Of a stretch of DNA of 39,750 bases, positions 12,427 to 30,961 are shown piece by piece. The stretch spans positions 19,392 through 59,141 of the forward strand of contig DJGG01000040.1 of the NCBI GenBank assembly GCA_002432195.1, written 5' to 3'. The DNA comes from Desulfobacteraceae bacterium UBA5852. GTDB taxonomy: Bacteria; Desulfobacterota; Desulfobacteria; Desulfobacterales; UBA5852. The number at the start of each line of letters is the position of its first letter. Within the stretch, counting starts at the first letter, position 1. The notes beneath the pieces are model-generated. The model saw nothing but the letters and a program-made list of their open reading frames with translations. It did no database searches and had not been told where the DNA came from. The position numbers were made by a program, and so were the translations under genes.

Positions 12427-13257
12427 GTGATCCCAAGAGCGCTCCTGATCCTGGCATTGTTTGCCCTGGCGAGCCCGCCCGCCCAGGCCTTGGATATCAT
12501 GCAGCCCCTGGTCTATGAAAAGAGCATCGCTATCGCCGGCTGGCTCATGAGCGAAAAGCTCGACGGCGTGCGCGGCTATTGGGACGGCCGGCGGTTGCTG
12601 TCGAAAAACGGCAAGCCCTTCCAGCCCCCGGATGATTTCACCCGGAATTTTCCGGATTTTCCGTTAGAAGGGGAAATCTGGGGCGGCCGGAGAACCTTCG
12701 AAAAAACCGCCGGCATTGTCAAAAGGCAGGAGGCCCACGAGGGCTGGCGGGAATTGCGCTTCGCGGTCTTCGACGCCCCCACGGCACCCGGCGGGGTCGA
12801 GGCGCGCCTGGGCCAGGCCGTCGCCTGGTTCGCCGGCCACCCCTCGGCCCACGCCTATGTCATCGAGCAGCGCCCCGTGAGCGATCACCGGCATTTGCGC
12901 AGGGAATTGAAGCGCATCGAAGCCCTGGGGGGTGAAGGGATCATTCTCAGGAGGCCGGGTTCCCCCTACACCCGAGGCCGGAGCCGGGACATCCTCAAGG
13001 TCAAGCCCTATGCCGACATGGAGGCCGTGGTGCGGGCGCACCTGCCGGGCAAGGGGCGCAACCGGGGCCGCCTGGGATCGCTGTTGGTGGAGTTGCCGGG
13101 CAGCCGGACGCGGTTGAAGATCGGCACCGGTTTTTCCGATGCGCTCAGGGAGAATCCCCCTCCGGTGGGTACCCTCATCACCTTCAAATACTACGGTTTC
13201 CACGCCTCGGGCATCCTCCGGTTTCCAAGCTTCCTGCGGGTCCGGGAGGAATTTTGA
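12427..13257 (+). CDS. ATP-dependent DNA ligase, minimal LigE type with N-terminal signal peptide
   Basis: This is the 3' part of the 823-aa track ORF 10786..13257. GTG at 12427 follows GGGAGG. Signal-like VIPRALLILALFALASPPAQA, adenylation motif I SEKLDGVRG, then GEGIILRRP, ILKVKP and an OB-fold tail. The upstream 547 codons are shadow sequence over the TauE and flavin reductase genes. Confidence 0.85.
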   Translation: MIPRALLILALFALASPPAQALDIMQPLVYEKSIAIAGWLMSEKLDGVRGYWDGRRLLSKNGKPFQPPDDFTRNFPDFPLEGEIWGGRRTFEKTAGIVKRQEAHEGWRELRFAVFDAPTAPGGVEARLGQAVAWFAGHPSAHAYVIEQRPVSDHRHLRRELKRIEALGGEGIILRRPGSPYTRGRSRDILKVKPYADMEAVVRAHLPGKGRNRGRLGSLLVELPGSRTRLKIGTGFSDALRENPPPVGTLITFKYYGFHASGILRFPSFLRVREEF

Positions 13258-15913: not shown

Positions 15914-16441
15914 ATGACCTGCGGACCGGTGGATGGATATGCCCTGAGAAACATTGTGGAATCCGATCACCCGCGGGTGATCGCCGTGGTGCCGGACTGG
16001 TGGGGGGGGCGGGATCTGGCCTGGATGCTGCCGCGGCTCTTCTTCATCCATTTCGGCAACACCTCCTTTGTCCTGGAGCGGGGTGACGAATTGGGCGCCT
16101 TCCTGGTGGGCTTTTTGTCCCCCGCGCGGCCCAGCGAGGGTTACATCCATTTCGTGGGGGTCCATCCGGAGCACCGCGGCAGGGGGGTCGGCCGGTTGCT
16201 CTACGACCGGTTCTTCGACATCTGCCGCGCCTACGGCCGCGACACCGTCCGGTCCTGCACCTCGCCGGTGAACAGGGGGTCCGTGGAATTCCATCGGCGG
16301 CTCGGGTTCGACCTCGTTTCCGGGAATGCCGAAATGGACGGCCTCCCGGTGACCCTGGACTACAACCGGCCCGGCGACCCGAAGGTCTTGTTTGTCAGGC
16401 GGATCGGCGTATCGTCCGGAAACGGTCCGGGCCGACCCTGA
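15914..16441 (+). CDS. GNAT family N-acetyltransferase
   Basis: ORF 15884..16441. ATG 15914 is preferred. Acetyl-CoA motif A: VGVHPEHRGRGVGRLLY. Confidence 0.8.
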   Translation: MTCGPVDGYALRNIVESDHPRVIAVVPDWWGGRDLAWMLPRLFFIHFGNTSFVLERGDELGAFLVGFLSPARPSEGYIHFVGVHPEHRGRGVGRLLYDRFFDICRAYGRDTVRSCTSPVNRGSVEFHRRLGFDLVSGNAEMDGLPVTLDYNRPGDPKVLFVRRIGVSSGNGPGRP

Positions 16442-16474
16442 ACAGACCCTTTGTGTCCCCGGACCCGTGACGCC

Positions 16475-16963
16475 ATGTCGACTCCCCAAGCCATCCAGCG
16501 TCTGCTCAAGTCTTCCCGCCGCGAAGACGTTCCCCGGGCTTACAGGGGAACCTGCTCCCTTGTCGACGAGGAAAGCCGGCAGGTCCTGGCCTCCTGCGAT
16601 CTGTCCGGTCAGGCAACGTTTGCCACGGTTTCCATCCTGACCCCGGACCGCCGCACCTGGACGATGAAGCCCAACCGCAAGATCATGCCCTCCCGCTGGA
16701 TCGTCTCCGACCCGGGGAAGTCGATTGCCGTGGAATTCGATCAGAACATCTCGCAGAAACTGATCAATCCCATCTATAAGTGCCTTCTGATCCTGTTTGA
16801 CGGTGAAAGCCGCGAAATCTACCGGGTCGTCGACCCTAAAACCAACCTGCCCGATCGAATTTTCGGGGTTGGTCCGGACGGCTGGCCGGAGCGGCGGCGC
16901 GAGCTGATCCGAGCGGAACTAAGCGAGGGCGTGCCAGAGAACGGACGAACCCAAATAGCATAA
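16475..16963 (+). CDS. Hypothetical protein
   Basis: ORF 16451..16963. ATG 16475 is preferred. No family recognised. Its last ~14 codons lie inside repeat copy A. Confidence 0.5.
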   Translation: MSTPQAIQRLLKSSRREDVPRAYRGTCSLVDEESRQVLASCDLSGQATFATVSILTPDRRTWTMKPNRKIMPSRWIVSDPGKSIAVEFDQNISQKLINPIYKCLLILFDGESREIYRVVDPKTNLPDRIFGVGPDGWPERRRELIRAELSEGVPENGRTQIA

Positions 16964-17072
16964 TACGGTCTTGATAATAAGATAAGTTTGTGTAAGCTGT
17001 TAATAGGCTGCGGGGTGGTTGCGGTAAATCCAACGACTGCAATTAACACGATGTCTGTCAAACTTTAATGTT
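16922..17072 (+). repeat. Copy A of a diverged ~150-bp direct repeat (partner at 26466-26617)
   Basis: Shared runs in the same order in both copies: AGCGAGGG, TGCCAGAGAACGG, CTTGATAATAAG, TAAGTTTGTGTA, GTGGTTGCGG, CAATTAACACGA, TTAATGTT. Contains a promoter-like TTGATA (16971-16976), 16-nt spacer, TAAGCT (16993-16998). Confidence 0.85.
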
Positions 17073-17138
17073 GGGCTCATCTAGTAGCTGGTAATCTATG
17101 ATAATAGGTGCGTGAGAATCTTCTCGGGAGATCAAAAA

Positions 17139-17552
17139 ATGAAGACAAAAAAAGTAAACGTATCTGGCCTTGGTCGTCTCCCTGCCTTTTGCCATGCAGT
17201 GATTGCGGGAGGTTTTATTTATGTTTCTGGTACATTGGGAACAAAATCAGACTCAATGGAGCTTGTAGAGGGTGGAACCGGGGCGGAAACCGCTCAGGCT
17301 ATTCAGAATATTGGCCTCATTCTGAAGGAATGCGGGGCCTCTTTTTCCGATATTGTAAAAGTCGGTGTTTTTCTGGCTGATATAAAAACTTTCCCAGAAA
17401 TGAACGATGCCTACCGTGAAGTGATGGGCAGTGATCCTCCGGCACGTATCACGGTTGGTGGAGCTGAATTAGCACGTGGAGCTGCAGTCGAGATTGATGC
17501 GGTTGCATACAAGCCACACGCGATGTCAGACGGAATTACCGAAATTCAATAA
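17139..17552 (+). CDS. ridA: RidA/YjgF/UK114 family reactive-intermediate deaminase
   Basis: ORF 17112..17552 trimmed to ATG 17139 after GGGAG. Motifs GGFIYVSGTLG.., DIVKVGVFL.D...F..MN..Y and PARITVGGAELARGAAVEIDAVA. Confidence 0.85.
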   Translation: MKTKKVNVSGLGRLPAFCHAVIAGGFIYVSGTLGTKSDSMELVEGGTGAETAQAIQNIGLILKECGASFSDIVKVGVFLADIKTFPEMNDAYREVMGSDPPARITVGGAELARGAAVEIDAVAYKPHAMSDGITEIQ

Positions 17553-17561
17553 GGAAGCATA

Positions 17562-18407
17562 ATGAATTCTGGCATACTTTATCGGAGGTCAGCTTTTACG
17601 GACAACCCAAGGGGTGGTAATCCCGCCGGAGTTTGGGTTGGTGAGACATTGCCGTCTGCAGATGTTATGCAGCGAATTGCGGCCGAAGTCGGTTACTCCG
17701 AGACTGCTTTTGTGGCACCGACTAGCGGACAGAACCGAACGATTCGTTACTATAGTCCTGAGATGGAGGTGCCCTTTTGTGGTCACGCTACTATTGCGAC
17801 AGGTGTAGTGCTCGGCGAGACCGAAGGGAACGGCACATATCGATTAGCAACTGCTGTGGGGGAGGTCTCCATCACCGTTCAGTCCCAAGGGGGGGTACGT
17901 GAAGCCTCCTTGACTTCAGTGGAGCCAAAGTACACAGGTGCTTCCGATGTACTTGTCAACGAAGTGCTCTCCGCGCTTGGCTGGCAATCCAGTGATGTAG
18001 ATGGCTCAATTCCTCCAGCCAGAGCTTACGCCGGGGCATGGCATTTGGTATTGGCCGTCAATGATCCGCATAGACTGGCCAAGTTAAATTATGACTTTGA
18101 GAGACTGAAGGCTCTTATGCTACGAGAAGGACTTATTACGCTACAATTGGTGTGGCGAGAGAGTACGAATGTATTTCACTCTCGCAACCCGTTTCCAGTA
18201 GGTGGGGTTGTGGAAGACCCAGCCACGGGCGCGGCGGCAGCAGCGCTTGGGGGGTATCTCCGAGAAGCCGAACTCATCGCTGTGCCCGCCACCATTTTCA
18301 TCCGTCAAGGTGAAGCGATGGGCCGTCCGAGCCGACTGACAGTCGAAATACCTGCTACAGGAGGAATTGTGGTAAGGGGTACTGCGGTTCCGATTGAGGC
18401 AGAGTAA
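17562..18407 (+). CDS. PhzF family phenazine-biosynthesis-like isomerase
   Basis: 281 aa with F.....GGNPAGV, GYSETAFV, FCGHATIA and EDPATGAAAAALGGYL. Confidence 0.85.
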   Translation: MNSGILYRRSAFTDNPRGGNPAGVWVGETLPSADVMQRIAAEVGYSETAFVAPTSGQNRTIRYYSPEMEVPFCGHATIATGVVLGETEGNGTYRLATAVGEVSITVQSQGGVREASLTSVEPKYTGASDVLVNEVLSALGWQSSDVDGSIPPARAYAGAWHLVLAVNDPHRLAKLNYDFERLKALMLREGLITLQLVWRESTNVFHSRNPFPVGGVVEDPATGAAAAALGGYLREAELIAVPATIFIRQGEAMGRPSRLTVEIPATGGIVVRGTAVPIEAE

Positions 18408-18524
18408 TGTCGAAGGAAGGTTGTGCCATCGAGTGCGGCTTCAATCCGTGACAACCGCCCAACAAATCGCTTCACTCGATTTTCACTCTGCTGGGCTTCG
18501 TGAAAACCAGTAACTCAACCGTAA

Positions 18525-18647
18525 TGGGAGCATGGTAAAATCAGTGTCGTATCGCCGGAAGGCCTGATCCTGCTCAAGTCTTTCCGCAAAAGCGGTCAGG
18601 ACCAGGACGACATTCGCTACTTGAGGAGCATTATCGATGAAGATTGA
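18525..18647 (+). pseudogene. C-terminal remnant of a nucleotidyltransferase-type (MNT/AbiEii-like) protein
   Basis: A short frame after a TAA reads WEHGKISVVSPEGLILLKSFRKSGQDQDDIRYLRSIIDED*. This resembles the ..V.V.S.E.LI..K......RPQD..DI..L tail of that family. The catalytic N-terminal part is missing. Confidence 0.4.
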
Positions 18648-18648
18648 T

Positions 18649-18804
18649 ATGAGTCCTGCGGCGGTAACGCTCCGACTGAGACAGGTCGCGCAACTCCGAA
18701 ACGCGTGCTTGGCACTTGCCAGATCGAGCGCTATCCTCGAGATTCGTAAGAAGAAAGCCTCCAACAAATTGGTGCAGAGGACATCGAAGGCGCTCGGCCG
18801 CTGA
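18649..18804 (+). CDS. Small hypothetical ORF (51 aa) following the nucleotidyltransferase remnant
   Basis: The ATG lies 2 nt after the preceding stop. MSPAAVTLRLRQVAQLRNACLALARSS... It is below the ORF-track size cut-off and has no RBS evidence. It may be part of the same decayed module. Confidence 0.25.
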   Translation: MSPAAVTLRLRQVAQLRNACLALARSSAILEIRKKKASNKLVQRTSKALGR

Positions 18805-18903
18805 TCATACCGTTCTGTGGCACGCTTCGCATTTTTCGTAAGGCCTTCAAAAATTTAATCTGATGCTTAGCATTAAAGACACCTTGAGTATTGGAGAAAT
18901 AAT

Positions 18904-19128
18904 ATGAAACAATGCAAAATAGTAGTTGAAAAACATCCCGACATATACGTTGCCTATCCGCTTGGTTTGAAAGGGGTGGTCGTGGGCCAGGGGGACTCAT
19001 ATGAATCCGCCTTGGAGGATGTAAAATCAGCCATTAAATTTCACATTGAAACTTTCGGACCAAGTGAAATCGATTCTGATCCACCCGTTCTTGAGGCGTT
19101 CATAGCTGAAGCGCGGGTTGCCGTCTAA
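18904..19128 (+). CDS. hicB: HicB family antitoxin (UPF0150 fold)
   Basis: 74 aa. ..YVAYPLGLKGVVVGQGDSYESALEDVKSAIKFHIE.. Its stop overlaps the hicA start (TAATG). Confidence 0.8.
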   Translation: MKQCKIVVEKHPDIYVAYPLGLKGVVVGQGDSYESALEDVKSAIKFHIETFGPSEIDSDPPVLEAFIAEARVAV

Positions 19129-19364
19129 TGGCAAAATTTCCCGCTGACGCTCCGATACGTAAAGTCGTGACCACTTTGGAACAACTTGGATTTCGGTTGG
19201 TTCGGGAAGGGAACCACATTGCGATGTTGAGGGAAAATTCTGATGGCACACGCACACCACTAACAATTCCGAATCATCCGCTTCTAAAGAGGTCGACTTT
19301 ACGAACGATTCTTACCCAATCTAAAATTTCAAGAGAAGATTTTTTAAGAGTGTATTTCTCTTGA
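19128..19364 (+). CDS. hicA: HicA family mRNA-interferase toxin
   Basis: 78 aa. ..VVTTLEQLGFRLVREGNHIAMLRE..GTRTPLTIPNHP.LKRSTLRTIL.. is the canonical HicA/YcfA pattern. Confidence 0.85.
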   Translation: MAKFPADAPIRKVVTTLEQLGFRLVREGNHIAMLRENSDGTRTPLTIPNHPLLKRSTLRTILTQSKISREDFLRVYFS

Positions 19365-19460
19365 AAAGCTGAGAGAAGCTACAGATCGCCGCTCGGCGGT
19401 AAGGCCTCGCGTTAGCCAATTGCGCCTGGCCGGTGCTTGATTTGATTCCCTTCGGGCCTC

Positions 19461-19493
19461 TTGACATTCTAAATGCGATATAGCAAATATCGC
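19461..19493 (+). promoter_or_regulatory. Candidate hsdM promoter with an overlapping palindromic operator
   Basis: TTGACA at 19461-19466. Perfect 7-bp inverted repeat GCGATAT-agcaa-ATATCGC at 19475-19493, ending 4 nt before the hsdM ATG. No Shine-Dalgarno is present. A possible -10, CAAATA, lies at 19484-19489 with 17-nt spacing, which would give a near-leaderless mRNA. Confidence 0.4.
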
Positions 19494-19497
19494 AAAC

Positions 19498-21357
19498 ATG
19501 ACAAATCCACAAACCATCGCCGCCACCTTGCGGGCCATCCGCGCCCATCTCGATCTCACCCAGGAACAGCTTGCTGAACGCCTCGGGGTCTCCTTTGCCA
19601 CCGTCAACCGGTGGGAAGGCGGGGCCACCTTGCCGCAGAAGGCGGCCCGCGCCACCATCGCGGCGCTGGCCAAAGAGGCTGGCGTGGACCAGGACGCGCC
19701 GGCAACGGAGCCCGTAGAGGCGGCGGCCCAGGTCACGCGGCGGCGCCGCAAAGGCGGCCGCGCGGCTGCGGCGGCCAACCACGCCGGTTCCACCAAGCCC
19801 ATGGAGCAGATGCTCTGGGACGCGGCCTGCTCCATCCGGGGGGAAAAGGATGCGGCCAAGTTCAAGGACTTCCTGCTGCCGCTCCTTTTCCTGAAGCGCC
19901 TGTCGGACGTGTTCGACGACGAGCTCGACCGCCTGGCCGAGGAGTACGGGGACCGGGACACCGCGCTGGAGATCGCCGAAGGGGACCACAGTCTTCTGCG
20001 CTTCTACCTGCCGCCGGAGGCGCGCTGGGCCGTCATCAGCGGGCGCGAGCCGTATGCCTGGCCCGCGGACGACCAAGGCCGCGAAACCCGCCCCAAAGAC
20101 ATCGGCCAGCACCTCACCAAAGCCGTGCGGGCCGTGGTGCGGCAGAACCCGACGCTTGCGGGCGTCATCGACCTGGTGGACTTCGCCGCGGAGCGCAACG
20201 GCGAGCGCGACGTCAACCCGGCCAAGCTGCGCGAGGTGGTGGAAACCTTCTCCGACCCCCGCTACCGCCTGGGCCTGGCCGATGTGCAGCCGGATTTCCT
20301 GGGCCGGGCCTACGAGTACCTCCTGCGGAAATTCGCGGAAGGCTCGGGCCAGAGTGCGGGCGAGTTCTTCACTCCCACAGAGGTGGGCTTCCTGATGGCC
20401 CACATCCTGCGCCCCCGACCCGGCGAGGAGTGCCACGACTACGCCTGCGGCTCGGCCGGGCTGCTGGTGAAGCTCCAGCTCGTCGCCCGGGAGCTCGATC
20501 CCACCGCCAAGGTGCCCCTCAAGCTTTATGGTCAGGAGCTCACGGCCGAGGGCTACGCCGTGGCCCAGATGAACGCCATCATCCACGACATGAACGTGGA
20601 GATGGCCCGCGGCGACACCATGATCAACCCCAAGTTCAAGACCGCCGACAGCCGGATCCGCACCTACGACATCGTGGTGGCCAACCCCATGTGGAACCAG
20701 CCCTTCAACCCGGGCCTCTTCGCCGACGACCCCTTCGACCGTTTCCGCACCCAGGGCGGCACCACCACCGGCAAGGGAGACTGGGCCTGGCTCCAGCACA
20801 CCCTGGCCTGCCTGAACGACCGGGGCCGGGCGGCCGTGGTGCTGGACACCGGCGCCATGACCCGCGGCTCGGGCTCCAAGAACGAAGACAAGGAGCGCAA
20901 CATCCGCAAGTGGTTCGTGGACCGGGATCTCATCGACGGCGTGATCCTGCTCCCGGACAACCTTTTCTACAACACCACCGCGGCAGGCGTGATCGTGGTG
21001 CTCTCCCGGCGCAAGCCGGCCGCCCGCAAGGACCGCCTCGTGCTCCTGAACGCCTCCCGCAGGGTGCAGAAGGGGCGGCCCAAGAACTACATCCCGGAAG
21101 ACGCCCTCCGCCCCCTGGCCGCGGCCTTCCTCAAGGGCGAGCCGGTGGAGGGCGAGATCGCCGTCATCACCCGCCAGCAGGCCGCGGAGGCCGACTACAA
21201 CTTGAGCCCGAGCCGGTGGGTGGGGCAGGCCAGCTCGTCCGAGGTCGGTTCGGTGAGCGCCCTGGTCCGCGAACTGGCGGAGCTCGACAGCGAAGCCCGG
21301 CGCCTCTCGGCAGCGATTTCCAAACTGTTGGCGGGGGTGGCCGATGAGCCTGTTTGA
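19498..21357 (+). CDS. hsdM: Type I restriction-modification methyltransferase subunit HsdM with an N-terminal XRE-type HTH extension
   Basis: 619 aa. Residues 1-60 are an HTH ([25 protein letters not shown]), followed by an Ala/Arg-rich linker. The canonical HsdM_N begins at M102 (ATG 19801, [14 protein letters not shown]..). Motifs [13 protein letters not shown] (motif I) and NPMW (motif IV). Confidence 0.92.
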
Positions 21358-22639
21358 AGCCGATCTCGGTGAAGGCCGGCAGTGGTCCCGCGTCGGAGAC
21401 GGGTACTGTGTCACCCGGAAGCCGCGGGGCCTTGACCGGTCGGCTTTTCCGGAGATCCCCTTCGCTGCCATGGAGGCGATTCCCCAGGGGGGCGCCTACG
21501 CGCCGGTGTTCACCATGAAGCCGCCCGAGGCGATCGCCAGCGGAACTTACTTTGAACGGGGGGATATCCTCGTCGGCAAGATCACGCCCTCCTTCGAGAA
21601 TGGAAAGCAGGCCCTGGTAAACGATTTGCCGGCGCCCTTCGGCTACGCCACCACCGAGGTCATCCCCCTTCGCCCGCGTGACGACGGGCACGACCCGCGG
21701 CTGCTCTTCTTCTACCTGCTTCATCCGGATGTCCGGCATTACGTCGCCGAGCGCATGGAAGGCTCGACCGGCCGCAAACGAGTTCCCGAGAACGTGCTGC
21801 TCGATCTGCCGATTCCGTTGTTGGATCTTGAAGTCCAAGTGGCAATGGCCGACGCACTCGAGGCCATCCAACAGGCATCGTCGGCGGAAAGTCGATGCGA
21901 ACTTATGGCTCAGGATCTCAAACGCTCGGCCATGCGGGTGCTGTTCACGCGCGGGGTTAATGGCGAGGCGCAGAAGGAGACTGAGATTGGCCCGGTGCCG
22001 GAGAGTTGGGAGCAGATGCCAATATCTGCCCTTGGACAAATTATTACGGGAAACACTCCTCCGACAAAAGACATAGCGAACTATGTAAATGGCGAGATTC
22101 CCTTCATTGCGCCTGGTGACATCGAACACGGTAGGGCGATTACGTGGACAGAAAAGTTCGTCACTAAGAAGGGACTGGAAAAGTCGCGACCCATTAAAGG
22201 CGGTGCTACGTGCTTCGTTTGTATCGGATCGACTATCGGAAAAGTCGGATTTGCAACAGCGCAGGTCTGTGTGACCAACCAACAAATTAATTCAATAATC
22301 CCAAATGATAGGTTTGATCCGCTGTTTGTTTTTTTCCTCATGACATATTGGGCCGACCAGATTAGGAAAGAGGCCTCACCGAGTCCGGTTCCAATATTGA
22401 GCAAAGGTGTTTTCCAACAGATTGAGATTTTTTCCTCAGTGGATAAAGTGGAGCAAAAGAAGACTTCTACTGTTTTAGCTGCCATCGACCGCAAAATCGA
22501 CCTCCACCGCCACAAGCGCGCGGTGCTGGACGAGCTTTTCAAGGCGCTGCTCCACAAGCTGATGACCGGCGAGATCCACGTGGCCGATCTCGACCTCTCG
22601 GCGCTATCCCCGCAGGCTTTCTCTGAGGTCGCGGTGTGA
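21344..22639 (+). CDS. hsdS: Type I R-M specificity subunit HsdS (two target-recognition domains)
   Basis: 431 aa, overlapping the hsdM end by 14 nt. TRD1, a central conserved helix, TRD2, and a C-terminal conserved helix (..[19 protein letters not shown]). The TRD2 coding DNA (about 21990-22490) is visibly AT-rich compared with the rest of the gene. Confidence 0.9.
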
Positions 22640-22824
22640 AGGGGCTCTTTGTCGACGCGTCAGGGGAGAGCAGCCAGCCGGGTTGATTCCCACAGCAAAT
22701 TCTGCGGGATTTGCCGGGGTGAGATCAATGTGAAGGCCTTCGCGTCCGGCCAAAATGAAGGGGCCAGCCCCTGCTACGCAGTGACCAGCCCACGCGGCTA
22801 CAGTGGCATCAGGGCTGCTGGCCG

Positions 22825-22976
22825 TCAAGAGGCTGTGGATAACCGGCGCCTAAGTCCGAAATGCGGCGTTGCGGCCCTCGCGAAATTGCTCACAACCCCT
22901 TTAGGGTTGCTCCGCTTTTCGCATCGGGCCGCGCCTTGCCTTTCGTCCTGATGCTTGTTTATCCACAGCCTCTCAA
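22825..22976. repeat. MITE-like element: 14-15-bp perfect terminal inverted repeats, partly palindromic interior, flanked by TCAA on both sides
   Basis: GAGGCTGTGGATAA (22829-22842) and TTATCCACAGCCTC (22959-22972) are exact reverse complements. TCAA sits at 22825-22828 and 22973-22976. The interior halves are partially complementary around a central CAACCC-cttta-GGGTTG. It lies in the 470-bp hsdS-hsdR gap. Confidence 0.6.
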
Positions 22977-23020
22977 GGGATACGGGTCCGGCAATGCACG
23001 AAATGCCGCTTCCGGCTCTA

Positions 23021-23088
23021 TTCGTCTCGCGAAACCCCACTTCGTGAGACGAAAACCGGCTTTTTAAGAATCTGTGAGACGAAACCGG
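23021..23088 (+). promoter_or_regulatory. Three copies of a GAGACGAA-containing motif upstream of hsdR
   Basis: TTCGTCTCGCGAAA (23021-23034, inverted orientation), GTGAGACGAAAACCGG (23044-23059) and GTGAGACGAAACCGG (23074-23088). The last copy ends 22 nt before the hsdR ATG. Confidence 0.45.
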
Positions 23089-23110
23089 CAGACCGAGGGG
23101 TGACCCCGCC

Positions 23111-26056
23111 ATGCCCGAGCTCAAGATCAGCGAGGCCGGCACCGTTCAGTTTCCCATGGTGAGCCACGCCGCCGCCCTGGGCTGGGCGACCATCCCCCCC
23201 GAGGCCGCCCGGCGGAAGCGCGGCGGCGAGGCCGGCATGCTGTTCCGCGACGAGCTCGAAGGGGCGCTTGCCCGGTTCAACCCCTGGATGCCGGCCGACG
23301 CGGTGCACCAGGTGATGGAGAAGATCGAAGCCATCCCCCCCACCATCGAGGGGAACCGCGAGGTGCTGGCCTGGCTGCGGGGGGAGCGGCAGTGGTACGA
23401 CCAGGAGGAGAAGCGCCACCGCCGGGTGCAGATCGTGGACTTCGACGCACCGGGCCGGAACGTCTTCCATGTCACCTGGGAATGGGTGATCAAGCCGCCC
23501 GCCCGCAAGGGCAACCGGGCCGATGTGATGTTTGTGCTCAACGGGGTGCCGGTCTGCCTGGTGGAGCACAAGAACCCCAAGGACGGCGCCGCCCTCGACC
23601 GGGGCGTGACCCAGCTCCGGCGCTACGAAAAAGAGACCCCCGAGCTGATCGGCGCGCCCCAGCTCTTCAACGTCACCCACCTGCTGGATTACTGGTACGG
23701 CGTCACCTGGAACGCCAACCGGCGGTACATGGCGCGCTGGAAGCAGGCGCCCGAGGAAACTTACCAATTTGCGGTGCAGTCGTTTTTCGAGCCCACCGAC
23801 TTCCTGCGCACCCTCCGGGATTGGATCCTATTTTACGTAGAGGACGGCGAGACGCGGAAGTCGGTCCTGCGCCAGCACCAGCGCACCGCCATCGACAAGA
23901 TCGTGGCGCGGTGCGCCGAGGCGGGCCGGCGGCGGGGGCTGGTCTGGCACACCCAGGGCTCGGGCAAGACCTTCACGCTGTTGACGGCCGCCCGGCTCAT
24001 CCTGGAGGCCAAGGAGCGGTTCCGGAACGCCACCGTCATCCTGGTGGTGGACCGCACGGAGCTTGAAGGGCAGCTCAAGGGCTGGGTGGAGAAGCTCCTG
24101 GGGGAGATGCAGCAGCAGGATATCCCGGTGTGGCGGGCGGGCTCCCGGGCCGAGGTGCAGGCGCTGCTCTCAACCGACAAGCGCGGCCTGATCCTTTCGA
24201 TGATCCACAAGTTTGAGGGGATCGACAAGGACGCCAACACCCGGGACAACATCTACGTCTTCATCGACGAAGCCCACCGCTCGGTGGCCAGGGACCTCGG
24301 CACCTACATGATGGCGGCGGTGCCGCGGGCCACCATTGTCGGCTTCACCGGCACCCCCATCGCCAGGACGGCCCAGGGGGAGGGCACCTTCAAGATCTTC
24401 GGCGCCGACGACGAGCTGGGCTACCTGGACAAGTACTCCATCCGCGAGTCCATCGAGGACGAAACCACCCTCCCCATCCGGCACACCATGGCCCCCAGCG
24501 GGATGACCGTGCCGGCCGAGCGCCTGGACAAGGAATTCTTCGAGCTGGCCGCCGCCGAGGGCGTCACCGACATCGACGAGCTGAACAAGGTGCTCGACCG
24601 GGCCGTGGGGCTGCGCACCTTCCTCACCGCCGGCGACCGCATCCGGAAGGTGGCCGCCTTCGTGGCGGAGCACTTCCGGGAGAAGGTGCTGCCCCTGGGC
24701 TACAAGGCGTTTCTCGTGGGCGTGAACCGCGAAGCCTGCGCCAAGTACAAGCGCGCCCTGGACCAGCTCCTGCCCCCCGCGTGGACGGAGGCGGTCTACA
24801 CCGAGAACGCGGCGGACGTGGTGGAGCGTCCCCTGGTGGCCGAGGTGCAGCTTTCGCTCCAGCGGGAGGCGGACGTGCGCCTGATGTTCAGGAAGGCCGG
24901 CGAAAACCCGAAAATCCTCATCGTCACGGACAAGCTCCTCACGGGCTACGACGCTCCGCTGCTCTACTGCATGTACCTCGACAAGCCCATGCGGGACCAT
25001 GTGCTCCTCCAGGCCATCGCGCGGGTGAACCGGCCCTATGTGGATGCCAACGGCGTGCCCAAGCGCGTGGGCCTGGTGGTGGACTTCGTGGGCGTCCTGC
25101 GGGAGCTGAAAAAGGCACTCCAGTTCGACAGCGCGGATGTGAGCGGGGTGATCGAGGACCTGGACCTGCTGCTCGGGGATCTTCTCTCCAGGATCGCCGC
25201 GGCCAGGACGGATTACCTCGAAACCGGGGACGGAGCCGGCGCGGACGAAGGCCTGGAAAAGCTGGTCTACGGCCGTTTCCTGGACCCCGAGCCCCGCAAG
25301 GCGTTTTTTGCGGCCTACAAGGAGATCGAGGCGCTCTGGGAGATCCTGTCCCCCTCCCCGGAGCTGCGGGACCATATTCCCACCTTCAAGCGCCTCGCCC
25401 AGCTCTACGCCACGGTGCGCAACGCCTACGCGGCCCGCGTCGGGTACGTGGCCGATCTGGCCTACAAGACCGGGGAACTGGTGAAAGACAATGTGACCCA
25501 GTATGGGCTTGGCCGGGTGATCAAAACCGTGACCTTCGACGTGCCGACCCTGGAGGGGCTGCGCCGGGAATCCGGCTCGGATGAAGCCAAGGTCTTCAAC
25601 CTCGTCCGCGGCCTGCAGAAGGAGATCGACGAGGATCCCAACGCCGCACCGGTGCTGCAGACCCTGAAGGAGCGCGCCGAACGCATCCTGGAGGACCTGG
25701 AGAACCGCAAAACCACCGGTCTCGCGGCCATGGACGAGCTGGCGGCCCTGGCCCGGGAGAAGGAAGAAGCGACAAAGGCGGCCAAGGAAAGCGGGCTGTC
25801 CAGCCGTGCTTTCGGGGTCTACTGGATGTTCCGGGATCACCAGGCCCTGCGTGGGGCGGGCATTGCCGCCATGGATCTGGCCAGGGAATCCGAAGCGCTG
25901 CTCACCCGCTTCCCCAACGCCCGGGTCAATCCCGACGAGCAGCGCCGGCTCCGCGCGGCCCTCTACCGTCCCCTGCTGGGGTTGGACCAAGAGGATCGGG
26001 GCCGGGTGGTGGACATCGTGCTGGCGATCCTGCTGAACGGCGGCGGCGATGCGTGA
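23111..26056 (+). CDS. hsdR: Type I restriction endonuclease subunit HsdR (nuclease + SF2 helicase/translocase)
   Basis: 981 aa. N-terminal nuclease region (..[17 protein letters not shown]), helicase motif I HTQGSGKT, motif [10 protein letters not shown], and later motifs [11 protein letters not shown] and Q.I.RVNR. Confidence 0.93.
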
Positions 26057-26348
26057 CCGCGACGAACGGCGCGCCAGGCTTCGGGAGCGCGTGAATCACT
26101 GGGCCAGCAGGTTGAGGACGGAACCTAAGGTCGTCCGCATCCAGCGCATGACGAGGAAGTGGGGATCCTGCTCCTTGACCGGCATCATCACCCTGGCCGA
26201 GGACCTAACGGAGCAGGAGCCCGAATTCCAAGACTTTGTCATTGCCCACGAGCTGCTGCACTTGCGGGTGCGAAGCCACGGAAAGGTGTTCAAGGCGTTG
26301 ATGAGCGTGCACCTTCCAGGGTGGCGGCAATATGGGTTGAACAAATGA
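26049..26348 (+). CDS. Short M48/YgjP-like (DUF45) zinc metallopeptidase
   Basis: 99 aa, overlapping the hsdR stop by 8 nt. Motifs RKWGSCS and HELLHL (HEXXH). It is shorter than typical YgjP proteins. Confidence 0.75.
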
Positions 26349-26644: not shown

Positions 26645-27247
26645 ATGTCAATTAAAGAAGTATTGGATACGTCTTTTAAGCTGGTTTATGACGAGCATGT
26701 CGGGAGATTATTATCAATTCCTGAAAAATACCTATCCCAGGTCAGGCCAAATAAACAGATCCCATACTCTGAAATGTTCAAGTCCTACAACTCAGATATT
26801 GCGCAAGAGTTGAACGAATATGGGGATAAACTACGTACTGAAACGAGGCGTGCATTAGAAGCAAAAGGAACGGTATCTACCAAGGATAAAGAAAAAATCA
26901 AGAAAAGCATTGAAAACTGTCTCGAAGCGGAATTGTATATAAATCGCTTTGACATATTTATCGAATCCATTGGTAGAACTCTTTCACGCTACGGAATGAG
27001 CTTTGAGCCAGAAAAGTATCGTGTAGATATACCGAAATCACTTGCCGTGACACATGCAAAAAACACTTGCAGAAAGATTGAATCAACAATTCTAAACGAC
27101 ATTGATGTTCTCTTGCTAAATGAGAACGCCAATAAATCGGGGGCGGGAGTTTATAGTTTTCTTAATGACCTTTACAACAAACATCAGCTTGCATTCTGGG
27201 GGCTTGGGCTTTTAATTTCAGTGATTTTGGGTGTCCTGCTTGTTTAG
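26645..27247 (+). CDS. Hypothetical helical protein with a single C-terminal transmembrane anchor
   Basis: 200 aa, AT-rich, with GAAAGG RBS. The soluble Lys/Glu-rich N-terminal ~175 aa are followed by LAFWGLGLLISVILGVLLV at the extreme C-terminus. No family recognised. Confidence 0.7.
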   Translation: MSIKEVLDTSFKLVYDEHVGRLLSIPEKYLSQVRPNKQIPYSEMFKSYNSDIAQELNEYGDKLRTETRRALEAKGTVSTKDKEKIKKSIENCLEAELYINRFDIFIESIGRTLSRYGMSFEPEKYRVDIPKSLAVTHAKNTCRKIESTILNDIDVLLLNENANKSGAGVYSFLNDLYNKHQLAFWGLGLLISVILGVLLV

Positions 27248-27253
27248 CAAATC

Positions 27254-27343
27254 ACATAACAAACCGCTCAAATACGTTCTGGCCACAAAAGACGTGGCCT
27301 CCACCAGACTCGCTAACGCTCGCCGTTTAGCGGGGCGTTAGCC
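27254..27343 (+). repeat. attC-like imperfect palindrome 1
   Basis: Ends are ACATAAC ... GTTAGCC. The inner box CCGCT(C)AAA (27264-27272) pairs with TTTAGCGG (27326-27333), leaving one bulged C. A 3x3 mismatch lies between the outer and inner boxes. The interior contains the hairpin GGCCAC-aaaagac-GTGGCC. Confidence 0.35.
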
Positions 27344-27392
27344 GAATATAGACCGACGAGATACGGGTAACGATAGAAAGGAGCTATGAATC

Positions 27393-28181
27393 ATGGCAAC
27401 ATTCAACGTCAATGAATTCAACCGCAAGATGCGCGAAGCTCAACGCAAAGCACAACAACATATGAAAAATGAGATTGACCGTGTGAATCGTGCCAATAAG
27501 AGGGCAGATGATGAATATAATCGGAAGGCTGAAGCTCACAACAAAAAGGTAATCGCCGACTTCAATCGCAAAGTGGAAACCCACAACAAAAAGGTGATCG
27601 ATGACTACAATTCACGCATCAGGGATTACAATAGAAAGGCAGACGCACATAATAAGAGAGTTATCGAAGATATAAATCGTCAGTTGCGATCTGCTACAAG
27701 TGGAGTTCGATACACAGAACCAGAGCGCTCACTTGCAGACCGCGTGCATCAAGCTGTTGCCACGCTGGATGCGCGGGAATATGATACATTTCTCAGCTAT
27801 GCTCGCATAGATGGTGCCGAGGTAGCAACAGCACTCAGGGATGCCCTCGAAGAACTTGGTGTATCAGTGTGGTTCGACGAAGTCGCTATTGTTCCAGGCC
27901 ATAGCCAATCGCTGCAAATGGATGCCGGATTACGCAAGGCTCGCTCAGGTATCGCACTATTAACACCTGCATATCTTGCTGGCCGGTTTTGGACAGAGCG
28001 GGAACTCGGGGCTCTTCTAAGCAAGGAAACGTTGATTCCAGTATTACACTGTGTCACATTCGATGACGTGAGGCAGTATAGTGGAATTTTACCTGACTTG
28101 GCGGGTTTTACTACAGCGCAAGACGGAATTTTCGATATTGCACAGAAAATTACGGCGGCAGTTCTGCTTGACCAAGAATGA
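27393..28181 (+). CDS. TIR-domain protein with a repeat-built coiled-coil N-terminal region
   Basis: 262 aa with AAGGAG RBS. Residues ~130-262 read YDTFLSYARIDGAEVATALRDALEELGVSVWFDE..SGIALLTPAYLAGRFWTERELGALL, which are TIR strand A, strand B and the W..E Glu region. Residues ~27-97 are tandem ~15-aa repeats (NRKAEAHNKKVIADF / NRKVETHNKKVIDDY / NRKADAHNKRVIEDI). Confidence 0.85.
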   Translation: MATFNVNEFNRKMREAQRKAQQHMKNEIDRVNRANKRADDEYNRKAEAHNKKVIADFNRKVETHNKKVIDDYNSRIRDYNRKADAHNKRVIEDINRQLRSATSGVRYTEPERSLADRVHQAVATLDAREYDTFLSYARIDGAEVATALRDALEELGVSVWFDEVAIVPGHSQSLQMDAGLRKARSGIALLTPAYLAGRFWTERELGALLSKETLIPVLHCVTFDDVRQYSGILPDLAGFTTAQDGIFDIAQKITAAVLLDQE

Positions 28182-28214: not shown

Positions 28215-28278
28215 GGCTAACCAGCGGCTACAAGAGGACGCGCAAACACCCGCGCGCCCTTGAGCTGCGGCGTTATGC
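28215..28278 (+). repeat. attC-like imperfect palindrome 2 (64 nt)
   Basis: Ends are GGCTAAC ... GTTATGC. Paired segments CAGC/GCTG, CAAG/CTTG, GG/CC and CGCGC/GCGCG surround an 8-nt loop, with several bulges. Confidence 0.35.
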
Positions 28279-28305
28279 TAACCAGACAACAGGTAAAGGT
28301 GAAAA

Positions 28306-29433
28306 ATGGTGGACAATAGCTTTTTCGAAGAACAAAAAGAGCAGTCTCTTATCAAATCAACCATTGTAGCCAAATATTTTGATGTCTGGGCCAATGTCAT
28401 CATAAGTACACAAAAACGTTATCCTCGACACTCTCAGAAAATTGCCTACATTGATCTTTTTGCAGGGCCTGGTCGATTTAAAGATGGGAGCACTTCAACT
28501 CCATTAAAAATATTAACCAATGCTATAGAAAAGCCTGATCTTCGCGAGCGATTAGTCGCCATATTCAATGATAGAGATGAAAAGAATTCAACCGATTTAC
28601 AACGAACAATAAAAACGATTCCTGGCATTGAAACTCTTAAATTCAAGCCAGCGATATATAATCAAGAAGTGGGAGAAGAAATTGTCAAAATGTTCGAAGA
28701 AATGAGCTTAGTGCCAACCCTATTCTTCGTTGATCCATGGGGATATAAGGGACTTTCTTTGAGATTGGTGAATTCAGTGTTAAAAGATTGGGGTTGTGAT
28801 GCAATCTTTTTCTTTAATTACAATCGTATTAATATGGGGTTAAATAATTTATTCGTTCAAGAGCACATGCAAGCACTTTTTGGCGTTGAAAAAGCGATAG
28901 AATTGAGAGAAGGGCTATCAAGAAAAAAGCCATATAAACGGGAATTAATTATAGTAGAAGAGCTTTGCCAAGCACTAAAATCGTATGGCTCTAGATATGT
29001 TTTGCCTTTCAGATTTAAAAATAATAGAGGCAAAAGGACCAGCCATCATTTGATATTTGTTAGCAAATCCTTTCGTGGCTACGAAATAATGAAGGACATT
29101 ATGGCTCGTGAAAGTACAAGCGATACGCAAGGTGTTCCTTCATTCGAATATAATCCAGCCGATTTTTTGCCAAGGCAATCTTTACTATTTCAACTTTATC
29201 GTCCGCTTCATGACTTGAAAAAAGATCTATTGAATTCATTTAAATGTAAAAGACTCACCATGCGTGATATATATGAATCGCACAATGTTGACACAGCGTA
29301 TGTTAAAAAAAATTATAAAGAGGTCTTACGTGAGCTATACGATGATGGTTCTATTGGTGCAGTATCTCCAACAGGAAAGCCACCACGCAAAGGCACCTTT
29401 AGTGATGAAATTATTGTAACTTTCCCAAGTTAG
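28306..29433 (+). CDS. tcmP: Three-Cys-motif partner protein TcmP-like (TIGR04474-type)
   Basis: 375 aa, AT-rich. The N-terminus ..IKSTIVAKYFDVWANVI.. and YIDLFAGPGRF are recalled as TcmP-like. It sits 8 nt upstream of a Gp37/Gp68 three-Cys gene, the defining pairing. MTase-like motif I DLFAGPG (aa 50-56) and motif-IV-like VDPWGY (aa 142-147). Confidence 0.75.
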   Translation: MVDNSFFEEQKEQSLIKSTIVAKYFDVWANVIISTQKRYPRHSQKIAYIDLFAGPGRFKDGSTSTPLKILTNAIEKPDLRERLVAIFNDRDEKNSTDLQRTIKTIPGIETLKFKPAIYNQEVGEEIVKMFEEMSLVPTLFFVDPWGYKGLSLRLVNSVLKDWGCDAIFFFNYNRINMGLNNLFVQEHMQALFGVEKAIELREGLSRKKPYKRELIIVEELCQALKSYGSRYVLPFRFKNNRGKRTSHHLIFVSKSFRGYEIMKDIMARESTSDTQGVPSFEYNPADFLPRQSLLFQLYRPLHDLKKDLLNSFKCKRLTMRDIYESHNVDTAYVKKNYKEVLRELYDDGSIGAVSPTGKPPRKGTFSDEIIVTFPS

Positions 29434-29441
29434 GAGGGACA

Positions 29442-30218
29442 ATGGCCTTAAGTAAGATCGAATGGACTGAATCTACATGGAATCCTGTTACTGGGTGTAC
29501 TAAAATCAGTTCAGGTTGCGAAAATTGCTATGCTGAACGTATGGCAAAAAGATTAAAATTAATGGGTCAACCCAATTATGTAAACGGCTTCCAAGTGACC
29601 CTTCATGAACATGTTCTTGAATATCCTTTAGCCTGGAAAAAACCACAAACGATATTTGTTAATTCCATGAGCGACCTGTTCCACGCAAAAGTTCCAGATT
29701 TCTTTATTTTCCAAATATTTAATATCATGAAGCAAGCAAACTGGCATCGTTTTCAAGTTTTAACAAAAAGATCAGATCGCTTAAAAAAGCTCTCATCAAA
29801 GTTAGATTGGCCCCAAAATGTGTGGATAGGCGTCAGTGTTGAAAATGAGGTGGTCAAATACAGAATTGATGATTTAAGGTGGATACCAGCCCAAATTAAG
29901 TTTTTATCTATTGAACCATTACTTGGTCCTCTTTCGACCATTGAATTAAACGGCATCGATTGGGTAATTGTCGGAGGAGAATCAGGACCAGCAGCCAGGG
30001 AAATGAAACAAGAATGGGTAATACAAATTAAAGAACAATGCATAGAACAAAACGTACCATTCTTTTTCAAACAATGGGGTGGGGCTAACAAAAAGAAAAC
30101 TGGAAGGATATTGCAAGGCCGGACATGGGATAATTTGCCTTTTGGTATTAGTATAAAGCATAACGACAACTTCCAGCAGGCCGCCAAGACAATGCCGCAT
30201 GTGGAATGTTCATTGTAG
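29442..30218 (+). CDS. Phage Gp37/Gp68 family protein (DUF5131, three-Cys motif)
   Basis: 258 aa with AGGAGGG RBS. IEWTESTWNPVTGCTKISSGCENCYAERMA (C19-x6-C26-x2-C29), FVNSMSDLFH, VLTKR, WIGVSVEN, SIEPLLGP, WVIVGGESGP and FFFKQWGG are the family blocks. Confidence 0.88.
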   Translation: MALSKIEWTESTWNPVTGCTKISSGCENCYAERMAKRLKLMGQPNYVNGFQVTLHEHVLEYPLAWKKPQTIFVNSMSDLFHAKVPDFFIFQIFNIMKQANWHRFQVLTKRSDRLKKLSSKLDWPQNVWIGVSVENEVVKYRIDDLRWIPAQIKFLSIEPLLGPLSTIELNGIDWVIVGGESGPAAREMKQEWVIQIKEQCIEQNVPFFFKQWGGANKKKTGRILQGRTWDNLPFGISIKHNDNFQQAAKTMPHVECSL

Positions 30219-30285
30219 CCCGAAATCTTTACTTCTGGCGCAGTTTTATATTTTTGAAGGCGGCTGCTGAAGCTGGGCGTTGGAT
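30158..30285 (+). repeat. attC-like imperfect palindrome 3 (128 nt), overlapping the 3' end of the Gp37/Gp68 gene
   Basis: Ends are GCATAAC (30158-30164) ... GTTGGAT (30279-30285, fits GTTRRRY). CTTC(C)AGCAG(G)CCGCC (30170-30185) pairs with GGCGGCTGCTGAAG (30259-30272), leaving two bulged bases. Confidence 0.4.
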
Positions 30286-30292
30286 ATTTTTT

Positions 30293-30817
30293 ATGCCATT
30301 GAGCAAGATGAAAACGATTTTTGAAAGCTATACCATCCGTTCAGCCAGACCGGAAGACGTCGATCGTTGCTACGAAATTGAATCCATTTCATACGAAGGA
30401 GACGAGGCCGCAACGAGGAAAAAGATCGCGAAGCGCATCGCGATTTATCCTGATGGATTCATGGTCATTGAAGTTGGAGGGACTGTTGTCGGCTTCGTCA
30501 ACTCCGGCTCCACCGATCAAGTTAAAATGTCTGATGAGAGCTTCAAGGAACTGGTCGGCCACGATCCCGACGGCAAACATAATGTAATCATGTCCGTGGT
30601 GGTTCATCCGGAATTTCATGGCAAGGGACTTTCGTCGATATTGATGCACAATTACATTCTGCGCATGCGGAAGCTGAGAAAGGAATCCATCCACCTGATG
30701 TGCAAAGAGCGGCATATCGCCCTGTACGAGAAGTTCGGCTTCCGATATATAAAGCGATCGGCCTCCACGCATGGAGGAATGTCCTGGCATGAAATGATAT
30801 TGAGCTTGCATAACTAG
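30293..30817 (+). CDS. GNAT family N-acetyltransferase
   Basis: ORF 30206..30817. ATG 30293 or 30308 is preferred. Motif A VVVHPEFHGKGLSSILM and ..ALYEKFGFRY. AT-rich. Confidence 0.8.
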   Translation: MPLSKMKTIFESYTIRSARPEDVDRCYEIESISYEGDEAATRKKIAKRIAIYPDGFMVIEVGGTVVGFVNSGSTDQVKMSDESFKELVGHDPDGKHNVIMSVVVHPEFHGKGLSSILMHNYILRMRKLRKESIHLMCKERHIALYEKFGFRYIKRSASTHGGMSWHEMILSLHN

Positions 30818-30961
30818 TGTCCATCCAGAAATGGTGGATTTTGGTTCCTGGCAAGGCCGCAGCCGACTGGCGCCCGCAGGCGTAGTGCGGCTACGCCGAG
30901 GACCGACAGGAGGCGAGAACGCCGCCAGGGGCCAAAAGATACCATTTATGGATGAACACTA
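30815..30961. repeat. MITE-like element with ~30-bp imperfect terminal inverted repeats, at the AT-rich/GC-rich boundary
   Basis: GTGTCCATCCAGAAATGGTGGATTTTGGTTCC (30817-30848) matches the reverse complement of GGCCAAAAGATACCATTTATGGATGAACAC (30930-30959). TA flanks both ends. The GC-rich interior has a central hairpin GGCGTAG-tgcgg-CTACGCC. Confidence 0.55.

Follow-up and report, generated by a model that had tools for sequence, protein, structure and literature searches.

Desulfobacteraceae bacterium UBA5852 carries, on contig DJGG01000040.1 of assembly GCA_002432195.1, two adjacent genes encoding TcmP, a three-Cys-motif partner protein, and a DUF5131 protein of the Gp37-Gp68 three-Cys family. 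The window referred to throughout is the whole stretch that was analyzed, 39,750 nt from position 19,392 to 59,141 of the forward strand of that contig, and coordinates are those of the window unless a numbered locus from another genome is named. The two open reading frames (ORFs) are intact and co-directional, with a spacer of 8 nt between them (29434-29441). A preliminary description made from the sequence alone had named the two families, the 8-nt spacing and a perfect AGGAGG for the second gene, and all of these hold. The AGGAGG overlaps the TAG stop of tcmP, and there are 4 nt between its end and the DUF5131 ATG. The intergenic gap of 8 nt suggests that translation of the two genes is coupled. 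The features of the pair are these:

28270-30247, + strand: horizontally shared unit, comprising both genes plus a leader and ribosome-binding site that take up about 35 nt (from blastn and GC content)
28306-29433, + strand: tcmP (ORF A), 375 aa, three-Cys-motif partner protein with an N-terminal helix, a Rossmann domain resembling S-adenosylmethionine (SAM) methyltransferases and a C-terminal winged helix
28453-28473, + strand: motif I of TcmP, D50-L-F-A-G-P-G56, predicted SAM-binding glycine loop, following strand 46-50 of the model
28729-28746, + strand: motif IV-like segment of TcmP, V142-D-P-W-G-Y147, putative catalytic base-binding loop, following strand 4 (138-142) of the model
29146-29376, + strand: C-terminal winged helix-turn-helix of TcmP, residues 281-357 (Pfam PF22560, GMT-wHTH, 58.1 bits against a cut-off of 27)
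29432-29437, + strand: AGGAGG ribosome-binding site of the DUF5131 gene, read directly from the sequence
29442-30218, + strand: DUF5131 / Gp37-Gp68 three-Cys gene (ORF B), 258 aa, predicted divergent radical-SAM-type barrel
29496-29528, + strand: C19-x6-C26-x2-C29 of DUF5131, putative [4Fe-4S] ligands, in a loop between strand 11-13 and helix 30-40 of the model

The pairing is a property of the families and not of this genome. Among the 80 best species-level loci, DUF5131 adjoins tcmP in 78. Three arrangements occur. Most loci have the genes co-directional, DUF5131 starting a few nucleotides after tcmP; the genes converge in the Gordonia phages and in about 25 loci of cyanobacteria; and in Latescibacterota DUF5131 lies upstream. 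The divergence of TcmP from the window copy is correlated across loci with that of DUF5131 (r = 0.73). Clustering of 1398 neighboring ORFs found no third conserved gene, the recurrent clusters being either Nostocales housekeeping synteny or restriction-modification (R-M) genes. Pfam and PADLOC scans of 148 neighbor proteins gave a heterogeneous set with no common partner. Because there is no third conserved gene, the module is taken to consist of two genes only.

The same two genes are the unit of transfer. In blastn comparisons of the window with more than 40 other loci, the similarity is confined to the segment beginning at about 28270 to 28296 and ending at about 30140 to 30247. Upstream of the pair, conservation extends no further than an AAGG ribosome-binding site and a short leader, and no conserved promoter was found upstream of the cassette. 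The pair has a GC content of 37.3% versus 64.6% in the rest of the window, and elsewhere the cassette falls more than 5 points below its flanks in 40 of 76 loci and above them in 1. Relatives at 70-97% identity are found in Bacteroidota, Desulfobacterota, Nitrospirota, Planctomycetota, Clostridia and KSB1. The pair is thus a horizontally transferred cassette of 1.9 kb. An autonomous transposon was considered and rejected, there being no terminal inverted or direct repeats around the cassette and no recombinase. TcmP makes up 2668 clusters at 50% identity, and a search of about 185,000 species genomes with two strict peptide patterns found it in at least 541; plasmids seldom carry it (13 of 72,556, each with a distant homologue). 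DUF2971-domain proteins recur beside the pair, in a Streptomyces plasmid (L107, 7577-8410) and in two bacterial loci.

Predicted folds and conserved motifs

TcmP is a full-length member of its family, matching positions 1-262 of the 263 in TIGR04474 with 199.6 bits against a cut-off of 53, and it also matches the PADLOC model PDC-M30A (E 3.6e-25). Its winged helix is kept in all close homologues and in longer representatives, in which no gene fusions or extra domains were found, and it is presumed to be a nucleic-acid-binding domain. Searches of the PDB by sequence and by profile gave no significant match for TcmP and none for the DUF5131 protein, and fold prediction was therefore required for both.

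The AlphaFold2 model of TcmP, built with an alignment of 125 diverse representatives at 38-56% identity, has a mean predicted local distance difference test score (pLDDT) of 96.5 and a predicted template modeling score (pTM) of 0.93. In Foldseek the first match is RlmJ (6qdx, E 2.7e-6), followed by Trm1 (3axs) and the DUF519 protein LPL1258; further RNA enzymes among the best structural matches are Hen1 and MnmM. There are 135 PDB matches with E no greater than 1e-3, and the top 50 listed all have the class I methyltransferase fold. A viral fold library returned generic methyltransferases only, which are of the same fold class.

The motifs fall where this fold would have them. The preliminary description had pointed to DLFAGPG and VDPWGY as methyltransferase signatures, and these are present at residues 50-56 and 142-147 and conserved across the 125 representatives. 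G54, G56 and G146 are invariant, and D50, L51, N88, D89, D143, P144 and Y147 are at least 90% conserved; N88-D89 is an acidic pair at the end of strand 2 (83-88). Even a Gordonia phage homologue with 25% identity keeps the motifs as DGFAGRG and DPFGY. The reading of these signatures stands for the class I fold and for motif I, which is in its canonical place. For motif IV a qualification is in order: D-P-W-G-Y is conserved and in the right position, but differs from the canonical (D/N)-P-P-(Y/F/W). It resembles what we take to be a D-P-F-G motif in Trm1. The AlphaFold2 and Foldseek comparisons thus bear out a methyltransferase-like fold, and the model supports TcmP as class I Rossmann SAM-methyltransferase-like at the level of fold and motifs. 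By analogy with its structural matches, a likely activity would be methyl transfer to a nucleic-acid base.

The DUF5131 protein matches PF07505 over positions 2-243 of 243 with 339.9 bits against a cut-off of 28.9, and matches PADLOC models PDC-M41B and PDC-M30B with E values of 1e-118 to 1e-120 (8.8e-118 for PDC-M30B). The three-cysteine motif C19-x6-C26-x2-C29, which had been likened to radical SAM iron-sulfur ligands, is present, and alignments of 82 and of 149 members show all three cysteines to be invariant. The larger alignment, also used for the model, has 149 sequences at 35-91% identity from a homologue cluster seeded with the PhiCh1 protein. The AlphaFold2 model (pLDDT 92.1) begins with strand 1, the cysteine loop and helix 1 and goes on with alternating strands and helices, which is the topology of the radical SAM partial (beta/alpha) barrel. 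In Foldseek the first matches are to spore photoproduct lyase (4fhg, 4fhc), and then to NifB, LIAS/LipA, DesII and BlsE. DUF5131 already has an entry of its own in SFLD/RadicalSAM.org, as the radical SAM subgroup Megacluster-5-2 (PMC9477430).

Further information comes from loci in which the partner has been exchanged. In Desulfatirhabdium (locus L056), TcmP is followed by a 256-aa radical SAM protein and no DUF5131. That protein matches PF04055 with 41.1 bits against a cut-off of 29.5 and resembles the PA0069/Rv2578c and mobile-pair-B families. A Halopiger plasmid has TcmP and a PA0069-like radical SAM protein in the same arrangement. These two replacements of DUF5131 by PF04055-type proteins imply that TcmP needs a radical SAM enzyme of this group as its partner, in Bacteria and Archaea alike. 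The DUF5131 profile itself aligns in hhalign with the PF04055-positive protein of L056 at 85% probability (E 6.3e-6), and this alignment places C19, C26 and C29 on C28, C32 and C36, together with LTK(R/G) and S-x-EP motifs. With a model nearest to radical SAM barrels and its cysteines aligned to those of a PF04055 member, the earlier radical-SAM-like reading of the three-Cys protein is upheld: DUF5131 qualifies as radical-SAM-like on predicted fold and profile homology. Binding of a [4Fe-4S] cluster by C19, C26 and C29 and reductive cleavage of SAM are putative functions suggested by the model and the alignments.

Genomic surroundings of the cassette

In the window, the cassette is part of a low-GC island of about 26.4-30.9 kb that lies directly 3' of a complete type I R-M system and holds the pair, a 200-aa ORF, a TIR protein and a GNAT acetyltransferase. 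The neighboring features outside the cassette are these:

19498-26348, + strand: type I R-M system (hsdM, hsdS, hsdR) with a YgjP-like metallopeptidase (Pfam, NCBIfam)
19498-21357, + strand: hsdM, type I R-M
21344-22639, + strand: hsdS, type I R-M
23111-26056, + strand: hsdR, type I R-M
26049-26348, + strand: YgjP-like/SprT-like metallopeptidase, 99 aa, matching positions 111-199 only of the 207 in the Pfam model
26645-28181, + strand: 200-aa protein and TIR-domain protein, in the same low-GC island as the cassette
26645-27247, + strand: 200-aa ORF with a hydrophobic C-terminal tail
27393-28181, + strand: TIR-domain protein, 262 aa (PADLOC PDC-S66, E 3.6e-36, and ThsB-like models)
30206-30817, + strand: GNAT acetyltransferase (RimI-like), directly 3' of DUF5131, true start probably near 30293
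10786-13257, + strand: 823-aa ORF whose sole Pfam match is a C-terminal DNA_ligase_OB_2, possibly an ATP-dependent ligase or LigD-like

The preliminary description had placed the pair beside an R-M system and a TIR gene and had suggested a role in phage-host conflict. Both neighbors are there, and the association with R-M genes recurs in other genomes; the TIR gene is not a conserved partner, being present in 1 other locus of the 80. The TIR, GNAT and 200-aa proteins were considered as parts of the system and rejected, as they are not common to other cassette loci.

Where R-M genes are near the pair elsewhere, they tend to be very near. With a limited set of queries, an R-M gene was found within 5.3 kb in 11 of the 80 loci, 7 of which have it at a distance of no more than 500 nt. 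Under a null in which R-M genes are uniform over the 10-kb flanks, p is about 6e-6 for such closeness in at least 6 of 11. One lineage (loci L003-L010) has the gene order hsdM-hsdS-[TcmP-DUF5131]-hsdR, and in L044 and L079 hsdR begins 9-12 nt past DUF5131. In L044 (6350-9425), hsdS is separated from the TcmP pair by SIR2-like and HerA-like genes, all within one type I R-M operon, and a SIR2-like/HerA-like pairing is an established defence system. L044 thus has two unrelated modules embedded in tandem in one R-M operon. In L079 (7056-8930), the space from hsdS to hsdR contains, besides the pair, genes for a 625-aa protein with DUF7380 and DUF4209 and for a 274-aa protein. In other loci the pair is directly 3' of hsdS (L092), between type III res and mod (L072), or 296 nt from a type IIG enzyme (L018).

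A type IIG enzyme also features in loci with a solo DUF5131. In L011-L013 (for example L012, 2917-3740), DUF5131 directly follows an 880-1080-aa Eco57I/MmeI-like type IIG enzyme, with PemK and HicAB toxin-antitoxin genes near. We considered this as a natural TcmP-free system and rejected it. About 60 nt of the TcmP 3' end are left upstream of DUF5131, and because the DNA similarity begins inside that 3' end, these loci look like deletion derivatives that have lost TcmP.

The pair is also found in temperate phages and in locations of other kinds. In Gordonia temperate phages and prophages it lies between the integrase and the immunity repressor. In Nostocales it occupies a conserved ndhD-thrB locus. 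In Desulfonema ishimotonii (L001) it stands alone inside the rnf operon; in that locus the pair is closely followed downstream by antirepressor-like genes (P22_AR_N and ORF6N), and gyrB carries an intein (Pfam Intein_splicing; 15990-19118, - strand). In Sinorhizobium meliloti, TcmP (SMa2243) adjoins the defence gene hna, and the two have been assigned to one putative transcription unit (PMC12445080).

Among phages, DUF5131 is the more widespread of the two. It is present in 178 of 50,697 phage records and TcmP in 5, all of them Gordonia phages. Solo DUF5131 genes sit in early replication and recombination modules, and in 4 of 12 phage contexts examined there is a DNA methyltransferase within two genes. 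We considered a fixed phage methyltransferase as the partner of solo DUF5131 and rejected it, since the neighbors, leaving aside the one that is TcmP, are C5, N6/N4 and Dam-like enzymes. ASCH-annotated genes directly follow solo DUF5131 in L097 (4909-5370, Bipper gp80) and L100 (4628-5347, Mesorhizobium phage gp5), and PhiCh1 ORF75 (L098, 6224-6844), also annotated ASCH, is a few genes from DUF5131; for two of these proteins scanned, Pfam did not confirm the annotation. Some prophage records label the DUF5131 protein an RNA methyltransferase. The phage contexts fit a theme of nucleic-acid modification and define no reaction.

Some further details of the window belong to its other genes. HsdM has an N-terminal HTH_3/HTH_31 fused before HsdM_N and N6_Mtase, which may be a built-in, controller-like transcriptional regulator. 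The start of the YgjP-like ORF overlaps the end of hsdR, and the ORF is either truncated or a short form. The 200-aa ORF has no match in Pfam, NCBIfam or PADLOC; it could be the partner of the TIR gene or a separate orphan. The N-terminal half of the TIR protein consists of degenerate repeats of about 14 aa (HNKKVIxDxNRK...), which are seen in the translation and not as tandem repeats in the DNA. A terminator-like hairpin (30819-30839) follows the GNAT gene. Other dips in GC, to 47-54% in a 65-70% background, are at 16500-19500, with PhzF-like and L-PSP genes, and at 21500-23000, spanning the hsdS region and the hsdS-hsdR spacer.

Related systems

The pair in the window is a typical member of the already named families TIGR04474, PF07505 and PADLOC PDC-M30, and as an instance it is ordinary. 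Both proteins match the A and B models of PDC-M30 on adjacent genes; DUF5131 also matches PDC-M41B, and TcmP matches PDC-M41A weakly. As in the cases that define PDC-M30 and PDC-M41, the pair occurs in or beside type I R-M operons, with the difference that in the window it comes after hsdR and not between R-M genes. PDC-M30 and PDC-M41 are candidates from guilt by embedding in BREX, DISARM and type I R-M, for which no phenotype, substrate or mechanism is given (bioRxiv 10.1101/2024.01.29.577857). PrrC in the EcoprrI type I R-M operon follows the same genomic logic of a foreign module between hsdS and hsdR; its proteins and chemistry are unrelated, the likeness being one of gene position. We rejected a classical R-M system, in view of the finding by Pfam, NCBIfam and PADLOC of no nuclease domain in either protein and of no third conserved gene.

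On the DUF5131 side, the closest solved fold is that of spore photoproduct lyase (4fhc, 4fhg), and both are in RadicalSAM.org Megacluster-5. The lyase acts on DNA through hydrogen-atom abstraction by a 5'-deoxyadenosyl radical. The differences are considerable: the lyase has CX3CX2C where DUF5131 has Cx6Cx2C, DUF5131 is about 100 residues shorter, and the Foldseek match is at E 1e-3 with 12% identity and a TM score of about 0.4-0.47. The lyase is not known to work with a methyltransferase-like partner. DUF5131 gave no match to the spore photoproduct lyase family by hidden Markov model or profile in NCBIfam and in PDB sequence and profile searches. A second comparison is with gp53 of phage M6, a radical SAM isomerase that resembles spore photoproduct lyase and takes part in thymidine hypermodification; it acts on bases in DNA after replication, as one step of a multi-enzyme pathway in phage-host conflict, and both it and spore photoproduct lyase act on pyrimidine C5-methyl(ene) positions in DNA (PMC8989533). 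Unlike DUF5131, gp53 is encoded in a larger 5-hydroxymethyldeoxyuridine (5-hmdU) cluster with a kinase, a transferase and a pyridoxal phosphate (PLP) enzyme, has the canonical CxxxCxxC and has no TcmP-type partner.

The radical SAM mobile pair (TIGR04471 for protein A, TIGR04470 for protein B) is similar in being a small mobile gene pair around radical SAM enzymes of the broad spore photoproduct lyase group. DUF5131 is a weak homologue of A (91.5 bits against a cut-off of 355), and the alternative TcmP partners resemble B (39-56 bits against 410). The mobile pair has two radical SAM proteins, whereas the pair described here has one radical-SAM-like and one methyltransferase-like protein. Membership of DUF5131 in either the spore photoproduct lyase or the mobile pair families was rejected, as its scores are under the cut-offs.

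On the TcmP side, RlmJ/DUF519 and Trm1 have the same motif order, with motif I before a D-P-x-aromatic type of motif IV that follows strand 4. They differ from TcmP in having RNA substrates and in showing no relation to it at the sequence level, even by profile. Compared with them, TcmP adds a conserved N-terminal helix, a helical insert, the winged helix and a radical SAM neighbor.

Proposed activity and its alternatives

From the folds, the conserved motifs, the pairing, the transfer as a cassette and the R-M and prophage contexts, we infer a substrate, a chemistry and a phenotype for the pair as follows. TcmP and DUF5131 may form a self-contained two-enzyme SAM-dependent module that modifies nucleic acid, most likely DNA, in restriction-related conflict, a proposal that is the best supported of those considered here and that we consider evenly balanced between right and wrong. 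In outline, the C-terminal winged helix of TcmP would bind the target DNA, and its Rossmann domain would bind SAM through motif I (DLFAGPG) and N88-D89. The D-P-W-G-Y loop would hold a flipped-out base. Methylation of an exocyclic amine would be the likely reaction, because the amino-methyltransferases RlmJ and Trm1 work this way. DUF5131 would carry a [4Fe-4S] cluster on C19, C26 and C29 and cleave a second SAM to give a 5'-deoxyadenosyl radical, which would act on the same or a neighboring nucleotide. Precedents for such chemistry on DNA are spore photoproduct lyase and phage M6 gp53. The result might be an extra epigenetic mark, or the pair might serve as a defence component alongside R-M, the cassette moving between genomes as a 1.9-kb unit.

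A number of points weigh against this proposal. The structural matches of TcmP are weak, with TM scores of about 0.37-0.48 (for RlmJ and Trm1 0.33-0.48, with about 10% identity), and those of DUF5131 are weak as well, with E 1e-3 and TM scores of 0.4-0.5; in both cases they speak for a fold class and not for a specific function. The DUF5131 protein of the window has no match to PF04055 (Radical_SAM) in Pfam at E no greater than 0.01, and its cysteine spacing is C-x6-C-x2-C and not the CX3CX2C of radical SAM enzymes. Non-canonical spacings do occur in bona fide radical SAM members. RlmJ and Trm1 are RNA enzymes, and an RNA substrate is possible. An R-M gene is near the pair in just 11 of the 80 loci, and many copies are solitary among housekeeping genes. 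The phage methyltransferases near solo DUF5131 span three unrelated classes, and their proximity may reflect a shared early-gene module. A module limited to modification offers no obvious means of harming a phage, and so need not confer defence. Finally, the preliminary description knew of no experimental characterization; in the searchable literature, which leaves subscription journals outside its scope, we likewise found no biochemical or genetic data for any TcmP or DUF5131 member and no functional study of either, of PDC-M30/M41 or of the GMT wHTH, although the families had already been cataloged as PDC-M30/M41 and as a radical SAM subgroup.

A more specific form of the proposal is that the pair represents a new class of DNA-modifying immunity module. 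A base-flipping TcmP would direct the radical SAM enzyme to specific DNA sites, where it would produce either a novel base modification or a restriction-like lesion, with the methyl mark made by TcmP denoting self, and the module would cooperate with, or back up, the SAM-dependent R-M system in which it is embedded. We put this forward tentatively, as a possibility that may well turn out otherwise.

The pair could instead be an abortive-infection or guard defence, in which TcmP detects either foreign DNA or some anti-restriction factor, such as a DNA mimic or a depletion of SAM directed against the neighboring SAM-dependent R-M, and DUF5131 is an effector that damages nucleic acid by radical chemistry or burns SAM. 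This would suit the embedding of the pair between hsdS and hsdR and its tight coupling to hsdR, a slot that the anticodon nuclease PrrC likewise takes inside type I R-M operons and that in L044 is shared with SIR2-like and HerA-like genes. The listing of the pair as a PADLOC defence candidate, in a paper that takes PrrC as the model case of embedding, points the same way, as do its place in the immunity region of Gordonia prophages and its putative co-regulation with hna. But the pair has no toxin-like or nuclease domain, TcmP conserves the whole set of catalytic-type methyltransferase motifs, for which a pure sensor would have no use, many copies are far from any R-M gene, and many phages carry a solo DUF5131 in their own early regions. 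We think a guard function unlikely. Repair of DNA is another thought, DUF5131 reversing a lesion by radical chemistry like spore photoproduct lyase, after TcmP has recognized the lesion and flipped the base. Spore photoproduct lyase is the closest solved structure to DUF5131, RadicalSAM.org puts them in the same megacluster, and the family is frequent in cyanobacteria and haloarchaeal elements, whose niches are exposed to ultraviolet light. Moreover, the phiE125 record describes Mycobacterium tuberculosis Rv2734 as resembling gp37, and mitomycin C induces Rv2734 along with recX and recA (PMC5057432). Against this, the distribution is sporadic and driven by horizontal transfer in low-GC cassettes, embedding in R-M operons and prophage immunity regions is unexpected of a repair gene, and a mere lesion binder would not need the SAM-binding and catalytic motifs that TcmP conserves; a repair role seems improbable to us.

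The structural matches of TcmP to the RNA enzymes RlmJ, Trm1, Hen1 and MnmM would fit a pair that modifies rRNA or tRNA, for example a mobile resistance determinant joining in one cassette two steps, methylation and radical SAM chemistry, that are found apart in Erm and Cfr. The annotation of DUF5131 as an RNA methyltransferase in some prophage records and the GNAT acetyltransferase directly downstream in the window could be read likewise. However, DNA is indicated by the winged helix and by the R-M and prophage contexts, the GNAT gene is outside the shared cassette, and the nearest presumed relatives of DUF5131 with known substrates act on DNA; an RNA target seems quite improbable to us. That the cassette is purely selfish, for example of an addiction type without benefit to the host, and is near R-M genes merely because those are insertion hotspots, is hardly to be believed. 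It is true that the transfer unit is exactly two genes, that these are inserted alone inside the rnf operon of L001, and that relatives of 70-97% identity cross phyla; yet there is no recombinase, no terminal repeat and no toxin or antitoxin signature, the pair is stably kept at one chromosomal locus in Nostocales, and the motifs appear strongly conserved.

What is new here, as distinct from the named families, is the exact transfer unit and the persistence of the pairing through gene rearrangements, the natural replacement of DUF5131 by canonical radical SAM proteins, and the tight coupling to hsdR, in an embedded slot shared with SIR2-like and HerA-like genes. A 2021 paper counted just two known radical SAM enzymes with activity on DNA (PMC8989533). 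If the pair installs a DNA modification, it would bring a new radical chemistry to DNA, and it would account for a passenger that keeps recurring in R-M operons of types I and III and in the immunity regions of prophages. With the minimal unit now defined as two genes in 1.9 kb, the residues for mutation named, and natural partner swaps and R-M-embedded contexts at hand for comparison, the family is an attractive and tractable one.

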